Part shown: piece by piece, positions 58,869 to 63,562 of the stretch | How positions within the stretch are numbered: the first letter of the stretch is position 1 | Layout: the number at the start of each line of letters is the position of its first letter | Source: a virus | Direction: 5' to 3' (one strand) | IMG/VR virus record: IMGVR_UViG_3300022745_000018 | Coordinates: 1-64,000 of that record | DNA length: 64,000 nt | Translations under genes and position numbers: made by a program | Notes under the pieces: model-generated | Told to the model about the DNA's origin: nothing | Databases searched by the model: none | What the model saw: only the letters and a program-made list of their open reading frames with translations

Positions 58869-59543
58869 ATGAAAAGAAACGAACTGGCTGAAGGTATCCA
58901 ACATTACCTAGGCAATCCTTTATTAAAAGCCGCTAGACAGCCGCTCCAATTTACCATGGAGCAAGCTAAGGAATATGCTAAGTGCGCCCGTGATCCGGTC
59001 TACTTCATTGAGAACTATGTAAGGATCGTTTCGCTGGACGAAGGTCTTGTTCTATTCAAGATGTATCCGTATCAGAAACGAATGATTCGTGCGATGCACC
59101 ATGGTCGAAAGGTCGTGGGTAAGATCTTTAGACAGGCTGGTAAATCCGCGATCTGCGCTGCATACATTTCTTGGTATATCACGTTCAATGGACACAAGAC
59201 AGCGGCCATCTTAGCAAACAAAGCATCGATTGCTAGGGAGATCTTCAGTAGGATTCAAGTCATTCTCGAGAACCTTCCTTTTTGGTTGCAGCAAGGTGTC
59301 TTGGAATGGAACAAGACATCGTTGGAATTAGAGAACGGTTCCAAGTGCTTTTGTGCAGCAAGTTCGCCTTCTTCTGTTAGGGGTAAGTCGATCAATCTAC
59401 TTTTTTGCGTCGCTGGTGAGACAAAAGTTCATCTTCGAAATAAACTAACTGGCGAAATTGTTGAAGTACCTATATCTGACTTGAAGGGTTTGCTTAGAAG
59501 AGAGGAGGAAGATGATGAAGGATTTTCAATTTCCCTCAATTAA
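58869..59543 (+). CDS. 17: terminase large subunit fragment 1 (N-extein, 179 aa) plus split intein-1 N-fragment (59406-59540)
   Basis: YLGNP.LK, DPVYF, RQAGKS Walker A, SVRG.S; followed by CVAGETKV intein block A and a stop. Confidence 0.92.
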   Translation: MKRNELAEGIQHYLGNPLLKAARQPLQFTMEQAKEYAKCARDPVYFIENYVRIVSLDEGLVLFKMYPYQKRMIRAMHHGRKVVGKIFRQAGKSAICAAYISWYITFNGHKTAAILANKASIAREIFSRIQVILENLPFWLQQGVLEWNKTSLELENGSKCFCAASSPSSVRGKSINLLFCVAGETKVHLRNKLTGEIVEVPISDLKGLLRREEEDDEGFSISLN

Positions 59544-60735
59544 AGAAACTGACGATTATCTAAGATTCATAGAAGAATGTATAGAACCAAACGAACATTG
59601 TGAAAAACATCACATATATCCAAAATCGATATTTGGTGACAATTCCTTCATAAAGAAGCTGTCATATAAAGATCACTTCTTTGCTCATTATTTGTTGGTT
59701 AAGCTATATGAAGCCGCTGGGATGAAATCTGAATACTTGAAGATGTCAAAAGCATTCTTTTCTTTCATTCGCTGCAATGAATATCGGTTATCTGAAATAT
59801 CATCGTATTCGGATGATGACATCACTGTGTTAGGGTGTCTATTTGAGGAAGCGAAAATTGAAAACTCTAAATCTTCAAACGGCGAAAACAATCCTTTTTA
59901 TGGTAAATCCCATTCGCCGGAAACTATTGAGAAAATACTGAATACAAAGAAGACACGTAATTCAATGAAATTTTGGACAAATGAGAAGAAAAAACGTCTA
60001 AGCGAAGTCCTCAAATCTCTACAAAATAAAAAGGTCATTTGGGTCACGAATGTTGAGACTAGAGAGAATCGTAGAGTATCTGAAAACGATCTTAACAACA
60101 TTTCAGATGAATGGGTTCTTGGTAGATATACATCAGATGAAGAGCGTCTGCACAGATCATACTCAGCCAAGGAATCCTCACATAATCTAACTTACGAATG
60201 GGTTCGCCGTGGAGATGAGCATGAATGGAGTGGCACCAAACACATAAAGTCGCTAGAGACTGGTGAAAATAGACGTCTAAAGATCAGTGATGAAATACCC
60301 AGTGGGTTTGTGTTAGGGCTCAATTTTTCGCAGTCTCATTTGGATAATCTTAGAATGGCGGCAAGTAAACGTAGAGGTAGACCACAACCTCACGTAATTG
60401 AGATCAATAAAAATCCATCCAAGATAAAGAAGACAGCTGATAAAAATCGCGGCACTACTCGCACAGAAAGTCAGAAATTAAAAATGAGTCTTGGGAGAAG
60501 AAAGTTTATCGCGAACGGGGGCAAAGCTTCGACTGCTGGTACGAAAAGATTGTTCAACAAATTATCTAAGAAGTTCGTATATGTACCTGCGAATGAAGTC
60601 TCCAATTCAATGAAAGAGAATTTGAATCTAACTGATGAAGCAGTAAGATTGGCGACGAACATGAATGGTGATAGATTGTATGTCTGTCAAACGGAAACAT
60701 TACCCAATGGATTTGAATATGTTCTTAGAAAATAA
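59512..60735 (+). mobile_element. free-standing HNH homing endonuclease (NUMOD3-type DNA-binding repeats) between the intein-1 halves
   Basis: EKHHIYPKS...H..AHYLL; GENNPFYGKSHS.ET; AT-rich; overlaps both flanking ORFs in another frame. Confidence 0.85.
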
Positions 60736-61411
60736 TGAATGGGAAGTTTTGACGGATGAAGGGTGGTCCGATTTTTCGGCTCTGAAGATAGGTCGGGGTG
60801 CATTCGTATCAATATCTTTCTCCAATCAAGAAAGCATAAGAGTCACCGCCGATCATTTGTTGATGACGGCTGATGGGTGGGTTGCTGCAAAAAACATCAA
60901 TGTTGGTGATAATGTAAAGTCCATAGATGGCTTCATCGATGTCATTTCAATAAATGATGGTGGCGAAGGTGAGACTTTCGATTTAGTCGGTGTAAAGAAG
61001 AATTCTAGGTATTTTACGAATGATGTTCTGTCACATAATTGCGACGAATTTGCCCACTTGGCTCCAAAATTAGCAGAAGAGTTTATTGCATCGGTTTTCC
61101 CGACGATCTCGTCGTCAATGGAATCGAAGCTGATTATCGTATCCACGCCAAAGGGTATGAATCAGTTTTACAAACTGTGGGTAGATGCTGAGAATGGGAA
61201 GAATGGCTTCATAACGGTTGAGGGTAAGTGGAGAGAACATCCCAAGAGAAACCAGAAATGGGCGGATGAGCAATTAGCAATTCTCGGGCCCGTCAAGTAC
61301 AAGCAAGAAGTGGAATGTCTTTGGGGAAAATCCAAAATAACATTAAGAGATGTTGTGACAGGGGAAATCTTGAATGTGTCTTTAGAAGAAGCATATGATC
61401 TAATTTGTTAA
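60707..61411 (+). CDS. 17: split intein-1 C-fragment plus terminase middle extein (61040-61315, 92 aa) plus split intein-2 N-fragment (61316-61408)
   Basis: VTADH block B, SHN|CDEFAH junction, IVSTPKGMNQFY, KQEVE|CLWGKSKI junction; start at 60707 or 60719. Confidence 0.92.
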   Translation: MDLNMFLENNEWEVLTDEGWSDFSALKIGRGAFVSISFSNQESIRVTADHLLMTADGWVAAKNINVGDNVKSIDGFIDVISINDGGEGETFDLVGVKKNSRYFTNDVLSHNCDEFAHLAPKLAEEFIASVFPTISSSMESKLIIVSTPKGMNQFYKLWVDAENGKNGFITVEGKWREHPKRNQKWADEQLAILGPVKYKQEVECLWGKSKITLRDVVTGEILNVSLEEAYDLIC

Positions 61412-61430
61412 ATACAAACAAAAAGATCAT

Positions 61431-62448
61431 ATGAGAGAACATACTTACATTGGAAATTTGCTTCGTAGTAGATATATTATAGTCGATGAATCGTATCTAA
61501 ATGAATATGTTGATTTGTGTTTATCAAAGGCTCTACCAACAAAGATTAGATTTGAAACGGAATGCCACCACATTCTACCTAAATGCAATAGGGCATTTCC
61601 TGAATTTAGAAAAGCAAAGTGGAATTTAGTTCACTTACGATTCGCTGATCACGTTCACGCTCACTATTTGTTGTATAAAGCAACACGTGCTGCAGAATTT
61701 GCCGCGGCGATGGTGTTTACTCTTGGCAATAGTTGCGCGTTTCCAAGAACTGATGCTGAATTGCTGGATATATTACCGATCATTGAGAAAATATGAATAC
61801 TCGCTATTCATGAATAGCGAGAGAAACCCTAACATTGGCTCAAAACGTTCGCTAGAGACCAAATTGAAAATGTCCATTGCACAAAAGGGTGTCAAGAGAG
61901 AATATGTAAAACGTATTTGGGTTCATAACTACATCGAAGATAAGATGGTGCAGGATGTTGAATTAAACGATTACATAAATGCTGGTTGGCAATTTGGCCG
62001 CACCGAAGCAACAAGAATGAAACTAGCAGACAGTAAATTAGGGACAAAGGACTCGGATGAGACTAGAATTAGAAAAAGTTTGGCGCAAAGCAAATATGCA
62101 AATTCCAGCGGTTCACACTTAAAGACATCTGAGTTTAGAGAATACCGCCGTAACATGTTCATTAAAAATAACCCATCATCATCTATGGAGGCGAGAGATA
62201 AAATTTCTGCTCGGATGAGAAAGCGCTGGGGTAATGATGATTATAGATCAAAAATGAGTGAAATGTTCTCTAACATAAACACGGGAAGTAAATTTTTCTA
62301 TAACATAGAAACAAAGGAATTTCGTAGATTTAAGCTAACAGACGAAATTCCACCAGGATTTCAAGATGCAACAGGTAAAACGCATTGGGTTAAAGATCAA
62401 AACGGAAAACGATTGAAAGTCATCGATGAAACGAAATTCACGGTTTGA
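61431..62448 (+). mobile_element. second HNH homing endonuclease between the intein-2 halves, with a +1 frameshift near 61790
   Basis: ECHHILPK...NLV.L...DH..AHYLL in 61431..61796; NUMOD3-like RSLETKLKMS and DSDETRIRKS in the next frame. Confidence 0.8.
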
Positions 62449-63562
62449 AATTCATGGCCCGCGTGGTTGGTGCAAGTTCGATGGGATTCGAAGAAAGAAG
62501 TCTTCGTCTTTATTAAAAATAGTTTTTGAAGATGGGGCACCATTAGTGTGCACTCGTGATCACCGATTCTTTATTGATGGCAAATTCATACAAGCCGCTA
62601 AAGTGCAAACCGGTAAGGAGATGAACGGGCGTGTTGTTCATGAAGTCGTGCCCATTGATGAATCGATGAGCGTCTACGACCCGGTTAACGTCGCTGATGG
62701 CAATGCGTATATTGCGGATTGTGTTGTTAACCACAATTGCAGTTTCGTCGGTTCGTCGAAGACACTGATTGATGGTGACAAGATTGCTCAGATCCCATTC
62801 ATTGAACCTTTACATGAAACGACCGACAACTTGAAGATGTATGAGGCGTCAATCCAAGGTCATTCGTATGTCTGTGCGGTTGACGTCTCTAGAGGTCAAC
62901 ACTTAGATAGTTCAGCGTTCATTATCTATGATGTGACGGTGATGCCATATAAGATCGTTGCTACGTTCAAGAATAATACGATATCCACACTGACTTACCC
63001 GTTCATGATCATCAATACATGTAAAGCATACAACGATGCCTACTGTCTGGTTGAGATCAATGATGCTGGTGGTGAAGTCGCCAATTCCATCTTCTACGAT
63101 AGTGAATATGCCAATGTCTATTGGACTCATAAGGACGACTTGGTAGAAGGTCTTGGATACCCTGGAGTTCGTTCCACGAAACGTGTAAAGGGCGTCGGTT
63201 GTTCAGTCTTGAAAGAATTGGTGGAACAGAACCAATTGATCGTGAATTCATATGACATCATCAATGAAATGAACAACTTCATTGCCAAGGGTGCATCGTA
63301 TGCAGCCGACGATACTCAGATCAATGATGACTTGATGACGTGTCTTTGGTTATTTGCGTGGCTGACAAAGCAACCGATGTTTGCTGACATCACCAATACG
63401 AACATCAGAGCAGTTCTGAATAGAAAGTATGAGGATTCTATTCTGGAAAGTCTGATTCCGTTTGGATACATTACTGATGGGACGGAAGAAAGTGCAGATC
63501 CAGTGACACACTTGGATCAGATGCGAACACCTGACCCAATGAAAGATTGGTTGTTAGGGTAA
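62426..63562 (+). CDS. 17: split intein-2 C-fragment (62426-62737, 104 aa) plus terminase C-extein / nuclease domain (274 aa)
   Basis: CTRDH block B, NHN|CSFVGSS.TLI junction, VDVSRG...DSSAF, VEIND, DDLMT. Confidence 0.92.
   Translation: MKRNSRFEIHGPRGWCKFDGIRRKKSSSLLKIVFEDGAPLVCTRDHRFFIDGKFIQAAKVQTGKEMNGRVVHEVVPIDESMSVYDPVNVADGNAYIADCVVNHNCSFVGSSKTLIDGDKIAQIPFIEPLHETTDNLKMYEASIQGHSYVCAVDVSRGQHLDSSAFIIYDVTVMPYKIVATFKNNTISTLTYPFMIINTCKAYNDAYCLVEINDAGGEVANSIFYDSEYANVYWTHKDDLVEGLGYPGVRSTKRVKGVGCSVLKELVEQNQLIVNSYDIINEMNNFIAKGASYAADDTQINDDLMTCLWLFAWLTKQPMFADITNTNIRAVLNRKYEDSILESLIPFGYITDGTEESADPVTHLDQMRTPDPMKDWLLG

Follow-up and report, generated by a model that had tools for sequence, protein, structure and literature searches.

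The question raised by this locus is whether a phage protein in which a C-terminal intein fragment (IntC), a host segment (the extein) and an N-terminal intein fragment (IntN) follow one another is a device for making a circular peptide or a piece of an enzyme that is assembled by two splicing reactions and, in the latter case, how the intein halves find their partners. The protein is encoded on the + strand at 60707-61411 of the window, i.e. the whole stretch of 64,000 nucleotides analysed here, which is the first 64 kb of one 171.9-kb T4-like phage contig (IMG/VR record IMGVR_UViG_3300022745_000018), and it carries the middle part of the large terminase (TerL). We consider it likely that three separate pieces are joined to a TerL of 545 aa by two class-1 split inteins, and that pairing of the halves depends on several weak-to-moderate determinants rather than on one charge switch.

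According to the list of open reading frames (ORFs), five or six ORFs on the + strand within 58869-63562 make up the TerL row. The N piece (58869-59543) consists of an N-extein of 179 aa that contains the Walker A region and ends in ..SINLLF (58869-59405; Terminase_6N, 2.2e-6), followed by IntN1 of 45 aa plus stop codon (59406-59543), which starts with Cys1 (CVAGETK...) and has an acidic tail at residues 33-45. The middle piece is composed of IntC1 (111 aa, 60707-61039; first strand NEWEVLTDE), a TerL extein of 92 aa (61040-61315) that starts with CDEFAH, i.e. Cys+1 and the Walker B Asp-Glu, contains the STP coupling motif and ends in KQEVE, and IntN2 of 31 aa plus stop codon (61316-61411; coding 61316-61408, stop 61409-61411), which starts with Cys1 (CLWGKS...). 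From stop to stop, the middle ORF is listed as 60665-61411, and its usable starts are 60707 and 60719 (gene caller's choice, P0001). The C piece (62426-63562) consists of IntC2 (104 aa, 62426-62737; first strand SRFEIHGPR) and a C-extein of 274 aa plus stop codon (62738-63562) that starts with CSFVGSS, including Cys+1, and contains the RNaseH-like nuclease domain (Terminase_6C, 2.6e-9). Pfam assigned Terminase_6N to the N and middle pieces and Terminase_6C to the C piece, with an intein/HINT signal in both the middle piece and the C piece. The three parts of the middle ORF that the initial annotation had named were all located, with the catalytic residues intact, and its extein is exactly 92 aa long and includes Walker B, as had been stated.

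Intein-less relatives are contiguous over both junctions (..LLCDEFAH.. in P0002 and ..QEVEVEFQGSS.. in L003), and because they read through both, the intein boundaries and the 545-aa spliced product can be given exactly. By tblastn over the whole 171.9-kb genome, this is the sole large terminase; otherwise, only a short gp17.2-like ATPase paralogue was detected. Because the genome has no other TerL, productive pairing of the pieces must dominate. A 22-aa tblastn match at genome positions 88276-88341 was rejected as a chance match. The frame at genome positions 101241-101939 (- strand, outside the window) spans 233 codons from stop to stop, is 26% identical to the TerL N-extein and has Walker A- and Walker B-like motifs without an intein; the encoded protein is similar to that of the short gp17.2 gene of Sinorhizobium phage phiM12 (L030). 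That phage had at first seemed a match and was discarded, its TerL being intein-less and accompanied by a short paralogue. A megablast search against the phage collection gave no match.

Both inteins retain the residues expected of class 1. The nucleophile is present as Cys at position 1 of IntN1 and IntN2, the block B TxxH is present as TADH in IntC1 and TRDH in IntC2, and a C-terminal His-Asn is followed by Cys+1 in intein 1 (SHN/C; the slash marks the junction) as well as in intein 2 (NHN/C). Because block B sits in the C fragments, both inteins are split atypically; a stop codon lies behind each IntN, and the fragments measure 45 and 31 aa (IntN) and 111 and 104 aa (IntC). IntN1 and IntN2 are 35% identical (11/31; z 9.6 against shuffles) with a common core C..G..K..LR...TGEI, and IntC1 and IntC2 are 23% identical; thus, the two inteins are homologous yet clearly different.

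In a sequence search of the PDB, VidaL (6VGV) was the best solved match of IntC1 (8.8e-5), with CatC at 5.9e-3, while IntC2 matched the consensus intein CatC (6DSL) at 2.7e-10; at the sequence level, the homologues of both fragments are significant. An IntC nearly identical to that of Cat (8.8e-54 to 6dsl_B) occupies the same ATPase/nuclease junction in locus L061, and intein 2 is therefore at the native site of AceL-TerL, GOS-TerL and Cat. Intein 1 is a more distant Cat relative at another site, one residue ahead of the Walker B Asp-Glu.

These assignments bear directly on the middle protein, the order of whose parts had been read as cyclisation geometry. In SICLOPPS-type cyclisation, IntC, target and IntN lie on one polypeptide and both halves derive from the same intein. 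Here, the partner of IntC1 is IntN1, encoded upstream, and IntN2 belongs with IntC2, so that the halves on the middle protein come from different inteins (23-35% identity to each other's partners) and the defining feature of SICLOPPS is absent. Because its IntC and IntN belong to different inteins, the middle protein is not a cyclisation device; the order IntC-extein-IntN stands, and the layout is that of a tandem trans-splicing module. The consequences of cross-pairing had been described correctly: if IntC1 paired with IntN2, the 92-aa extein would be circularised or, as we add, concatenated, and pairing of IntN1 with IntC2 would leave out Walker B.

In a tree of 62 IntC domains, insertion site is clustered and not monophyletic, with 7 changes as compared with 18.9 when the labels are shuffled, and at least two site changes are forced by well-supported branches. 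IntC1 joins L031 and P0020 (support 99/95), and IntC2 shares its highest identity (40%) with a site-1 IntC; sites 1 and 2 are the insertion sites of inteins 1 and 2. Inteins of different TerL sites are interleaved, the site-1 intein of L085 lying inside a site-2 clade (97/85). The interleaving implies that the intein has repeatedly moved from one TerL site to another, and the sequences point to a single intein family that has been relocated among several TerL sites. Three insertion points (-4, -1 and +1) lie within five residues about the Walker B Asp-Glu.

Each of the two breaks contains a free-standing HNH-NUMOD3 homing endonuclease gene on the + strand. Endonuclease gene 1 (59512-60735, 407 aa; NUMOD3 3.8e-8, HNH_4 weak) starts inside the last part of IntN1 and ends inside the first part of IntC1. 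Endonuclease gene 2 (61431-62448) overlaps the start of IntC2 and lies in two reading frames, i.e. an HNH part of 121 aa (61431-61796) and a NUMOD3 part that probably starts at the ATG at 61810, 13 nt on, and ends at 62448. The two parts align to the front and back of the intact 407-aa endonuclease 1; gene 2 may be in decay, may encode a two-subunit form or may appear split through a sequencing error. The fractured-gene layout, in which split intein halves surround a free-standing endonuclease gene on one strand, is found twice in this gene, and the endonuclease genes would be the likely cause of the split. Endonuclease gene 1 also accounts for the acidic tail of IntN1 on which the initial annotation had remarked. 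Residues 31-38 (RREEEDDE) are coded by AGA AGA GAG GAG GAA GAT GAT GAA, and this stretch, read in another frame, is the Shine-Dalgarno sequence and ATG of endonuclease gene 1. The tail is present as described; from Glu33 on it lies outside the predicted interface, which takes in IntN1 residues 1-14 and 23-31 only.

This interface was predicted by co-folding with ESMFold2 of the whole middle protein (with its own 25-row alignment) and a 51-aa fragment composed of the last six N-extein residues and IntN1. The complex scored 0.76, compared with 0.00 for the best of three controls; of 80 solved complexes, 58 attain this mark, as do 2 of 110 mismatched pairs, a calibration that is only rough here because the alignment was our own. 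The three runs have at least 60% of their contacts in common, and the partner has a pLDDT of at least 66. Like complexes have been solved (6DSL, 6VGV), and the pass may be memory; it shows likeness, not binding. In the model, IntN1 docks in IntC1, and with IntN2 present in cis all interface residues of the middle protein are within IntC1 (7-112). The tightest modelled contacts are those of IntN1 H9-L10-R11-N12-K13 with IntC1 W12-E13-V14-L15, and N-extein residues -3 to -1 are also inside the modelled interface. In an AF2 model of the middle protein alone, IntC1 has a pLDDT of 91-98, and IntN2 forms a hairpin and a helix with a pLDDT of 76-83.

Opposite charges of cognate halves had been proposed as the source of specificity. 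The charged motifs on which this proposal was built are present in the sequences. The net charges of the fragments are -4 (IntN1), -10 (IntC1), -2 (IntN2) and +3 (IntC2). At first sight, -4 against -10 contradicts the charge idea for intein 1; IntN1 divides into +2 for residues 1-32 and -6 for the tail at 33-45, and without the tail it is +2. Net charge of the whole fragment was dropped as a measure, IntC being acidic almost everywhere and the IntN1 tail being the start region of the neighbouring gene.

We instead compared strand charges, i.e. IntN residues 7-13 with the nine IntC residues ahead of the G[WFY]xx[FYW] anchor, in 80 cognate IntN/IntC pairs from HMM annotation of fetched loci after removal of near-copies (41 at P-loop and Walker B sites, 38 at site 2). 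IntN 7-13 and the first IntC strand are opposite in charge (Spearman -0.74, p 2.5e-15), also within the P-loop and Walker B sites (Spearman -0.31, p 0.046) and within site 2 (Spearman -0.50, p 0.0015). When position pairs were scanned against shuffles of the partners inside each site class, three pairs ranked highest, each matched by 0/500 shuffles: IntN 9 with IntC strand position 6 (z 5.0), IntN 11 with position 4 (z 4.0) and IntN 13 with position 4 (z 3.4). The three pairs are modelled contacts (L15 with H9; E13 with R11 and K13); in IntC2, strand positions 4 and 6 are E8 and H10. Site-0/1 inteins have mean charges of +2.3 for IntN and -3.2 for IntC, with motifs K-x-T-x-RNK and [ND][ED]WEVLT, respectively; in site-2 inteins the means are -0.5 and +0.7, and the Cat-like ones have IEILDE facing KTP-type strands. 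As judged from these sequences, the charges of the strand pair are a genuine co-evolving feature of the intein family, and they probably help partner choice.

The charge proposal thus holds for one place only. The pair named for intein 1, a basic ..RNK.. core and an acidic ..EWEVL.., sits exactly at the covarying strands, and the window's intein 1 has strand charges of +3/-4. The corresponding charges of intein 2 are nearly neutral (+1/+1). A stronger difference between co-resident inteins is seen in L061 (+3/-4 and -3/+2). The pair named for intein 2, an acidic ..EEAYD in the IntN helix and a basic ..RRKK.. in the IntC loop, did not bear out: over the 80 cognate pairs, these elements show no charge anticorrelation (Spearman 0.00 to 0.17). 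Among the cross-pairings, IntN1 with IntC2 has a mildly unfavourable strand product of +3. We conclude that strand charges can account for only part of any orthogonality here.

It was further proposed that the window's two inteins have co-evolved opposite charges, IntN1 basic and IntC1 acidic, IntN2 acidic and IntC2 basic, and several observations fit with such charges being the chief enforcer of orthogonality. With the tail set aside, cognate fragments are opposite (+2 against -10, -2 against +3) and cross-paired ones alike; the IntC heads carry -5 (IntC1) and +7 (IntC2), and in the family the polarity of the head differs between site-0/1 and site-2 inteins (Mann-Whitney p 5e-6), as does that of the strands. 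Moreover, in eight independent multi-piece genomes, the strand charge product has a mean of -5.56 for cognate pairs and +1.19 for cross pairs, with cross above cognate in 7/8 (Wilcoxon p 0.016). Nevertheless, we regard this explanation as unlikely. Phages with only one split intein show this polarity equally, and for randomly drawn site-1 and site-2 inteins the cross product, as calculated from the site means, is already about +1.5, the same as the +1.19 of co-resident pairs; therefore, there is no extra divergence upon co-residence. In locus L226, two co-resident inteins even share the same polarity. The near-neutral strands of intein 2, the helix and loop without covariation and the nearly universal acidity of IntC speak against it as well, and the three covarying contacts do not discriminate the window's inteins because Arg11 is present in both IntN and Glu at strand position 4 in both IntC. 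Altogether, polarity is a lineage trait, seen in single-intein phages too, and not a co-evolved adaptation of this phage.

Were orthogonality incomplete, some cyclised or concatenated middle extein and an exon-skipped N-C product of 453 aa would be formed, and they might be tolerated or used as a brake on packaging; the initial annotation had raised regulated mis-splicing in this sense. The common core of the 35%-identical IntN fragments is in line with such leakage, as is the strand product of IntN2 with IntC1, which is not disfavoured. Short atypical fragments were the main cross-reactors in test panels (PMC7090010, PMC3443213), and the IntN of GOS-TerL and AceL-TerL are interchangeable (PMC11766414). 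Nevertheless, the layout persists in at least 24 divergent clusters with catalytic residues intact, and no sequence feature points to regulation; the idea of tuned packaging is unsupported. Moreover, T4 gp17 is a pentameric motor, and an ATPase subunit without Walker B would be expected to poison such a motor. We therefore consider incomplete orthogonality improbable. More improbable by far is that one or both breaks stay unspliced, with the pieces held in a non-covalent complex by the intein halves or representing a row of decaying genes. Some genes in pieces remain functional unspliced (nrd, cited in PMC10448857), site 2 is at a domain boundary, and endonuclease gene 2 is already in two frames. 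By contrast, Cys1, TxxH, the terminal HN and Cys+1 are kept at both inteins and in relatives, site 1 cuts a core strand of the ATPase fold, and the whole-genome tblastn revealed no second TerL.

We favour the reading that TerL would be made as three polypeptides from one co-oriented gene row, and that two successive protein trans-splicing reactions most likely rebuild the 545-aa enzyme. Pairing may have four determinants. The co-evolving electrostatic strand pair would contribute strongly in intein 1 and little in intein 2. The last N-extein residues, which are in the predicted interface and differ sharply between the two junctions (LLF as compared with EVE), the hydrophobic packing of the IntN helix, and the order of synthesis, by which the N piece and IntC1 would be made before IntN2 emerges, are plausible further determinants. 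On this reading, the two intein pairs would be orthogonal.

Several points weigh against this reading. The Pfam family Intein_splicing (PF14890) scores 29.8 bits for the middle ORF and 13.6 bits for the C piece, both under the curated cut-off of 35.8 bits. IntN2 with IntC1, the pair that would cyclise the extein, has a strand product of -4, which is better than the +1 of the cognate IntN2 with IntC2, and IntN2, which has a confident hairpin and helix in the AF2 model of the middle protein alone, may dock on IntC1 in cis. At the three covarying contacts, both window inteins have the same charge, Arg11 facing Glu at strand position 4. Atypically split inteins lean more on hydrophobic contacts (PMC11923092, PMC11766414), and short IntN fragments cross-react (PMC3443213, PMC7090010). 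Finally, the argument from synthesis order is purely conjectural, and splicing in this phage, its order and its fidelity are predictions from sequence.

The three-piece layout is not unique to this phage. When 1.84 billion representative proteins were scanned in full by HMMER, at least 24 clusters (at 50% identity) of 220-268 aa matched the middle ORF end to end. In a 25-row alignment of middle pieces, Cys+1 never varies, and at least 90% of rows retain each of IntN Cys1, the terminal Asn and the block B His; the exceptions are a few rows with terminal Gln and one row with Ser1. Related loci were searched for in IMG/VR and JGI contigs with two subsets of this alignment, the full alignment being too diverse. 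Sites 1 and 2 are both split in L048 and L067-69. Either site can be contiguous or split, and every other combination also occurs. Among relatives with one intein, intein 1 is a contiguous mini-intein in L003 and L004 and split in L006 and L031, while only site 2 is split in L005, P0002, P0003, P0005 and Serratia phage 92A1. The P-loop is a third site; it is split together with site 2 in L061 and L227 (L246 has the same N and middle pieces, and its C piece is beyond the locus) and together with site 1 in L052 and L226. L207 (2656-7322) and probably L037 (1-3412) encode terminases in four pieces, all three sites (P-loop, Walker B and ATPase/nuclease junction) being occupied by split inteins. 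Across loci, the gaps contain HNH-NUMOD3 genes, GIY-YIG genes, no endonuclease, or an endonuclease fused in-frame to IntN. No paper on a natural three-piece terminase was found in the searchable literature, which omits several key intein papers in subscription journals; as far as searched, the layout is common in uncultured phages and apparently undescribed.

The arrangement combines systems of known kinds, i.e. fractured genes and atypically split TerL inteins, and as far as searched its two-intein three-piece form is new and widespread in uncultured phages. The fractured terminase of the AceL-TerL/GOS-TerL/Cat family was first reported by Dassa et al. 2009 (PMC2677866), who also noted opposite local charges on the interface strands. 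That family (6DSL; PMC2677866, PMC11766414) has the same host protein, a short IntN with an IntC of about 104 aa that includes block B, and the same site as intein 2; however, theirs are single two-piece inteins, whereas here TerL has a second, related split intein 92 residues further upstream. Intein 2 is only a distant relative of Cat, and IntN2 has the LR.xxTGE core typical of site-1 inteins. VidaL (6VGV), an ultra-short split intein, is likewise atypically split and the best solved match of IntC1, but the Pfam-level likeness is weak. As in other fractured genes (PMC2677866), a split intein interrupts the gene of a conserved phage enzyme and the gap is occupied by a free-standing endonuclease gene, with all parts on one strand; here, however, there are two fractures and hence a middle piece, the endonucleases are HNH-NUMOD3 rather than GIY-YIG or Vsr-like, and the ORFs overlap, whereas theirs are spaced by 27-51 nt.

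The N-fragments of 45 and 31 aa are very short, as had been pointed out, but such fragments are an already known class: those of AceL-TerL, GOS-TerL and Cat have 25, 37 and 30 aa (PMC11766414), PolB16 has 15 aa, and the shortest atypical IntN have 15-16 aa (PMC10189870), as compared with the 45 aa of IntN1, of which about 31 would be functional. Inteins with short IntN are the most useful for peptide labelling and also the most cross-reactive in test panels (PMC7090010). In engineered tandem trans-splicing and three-segment ligation (PMC12707363, PMC7210297, PMC7090010), the design is identical in that a middle segment lies between the IntC of one intein and the IntN of another; that system is man-made and relies on a hunt for unrelated orthogonal split inteins, whereas the one described here is natural and uses two members of one family, both with a short IntN. 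Phages appear to have solved orthogonality repeatedly with close relatives of one family, the Cat/AceL-TerL type included (L061). In charge-engineered gp41-1 split inteins (bioRxiv 10.1101/546465), charge networks between N- and C-fragments set partner choice, but with canonical split sites and designed mutations, in contrast to the natural covarying charges of one strand pair in an atypical split. We offer only tentatively the broader proposal that a natural charge code (IntN 9, 11 and 13 with IntC strand positions 4 and 6) acts jointly with the last N-extein residues to set partner choice and so allows two to three inteins of the same family per protein. If covarying strand charges and local extein residues do so, they would provide a design rule with many natural test cases, and if the charge code is true, these phages would hold a ready-made library of mutually orthogonal split inteins with an IntN of about 30 aa. 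For phage biology, the loci indicate that homing endonucleases can fragment an essential gene into up to four pieces without killing it.

Variants of the junctions and gaps occur within the family. Several IntC end in Gln instead of Asn (..HQ/C, ..NQ/C), among them alignment rows P0075 and P0101 and the IntC of L067 and L050; one IntN has Ser as its first residue, and Thr is the first residue of two C-exteins. In L037 and L052, there is no stop codon between IntN1 and a GIY-YIG endonuclease in the same frame, and site 2 of L037 is without an endonuclease gene. In the jumbo-phage contigs L020-L026 (up to 411 kb), a TerL N part of 320 aa ends in an IntN and the next ORF is not an IntC; therefore, the C piece must lie elsewhere in the genome.

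Split terminases are also present in cultured phages. In the T4-like Serratia phage 92A1 from cheese rind (L001, 2709-5686), TerL is atypically split at site 2 with a GIY-YIG gene in the gap, and neither the endonuclease nor the C piece has an annotation beyond hypothetical protein. In the Fletchervirus Campylobacter phage vB_CjeM_Los1, TerL is divided at site 1 into two pieces that lie about 24 kb from each other on different strands. Its N piece (L188, 2-718, - strand) ends in ..FIDE followed by an IntN of 29 aa, and the C piece (L002, 2504-3832, + strand), annotated as 'DNA packaging protein', begins with an IntC1-like domain with the junction SHN/CAFID. The same C piece is carried by about 50 Campylobacter phage records.

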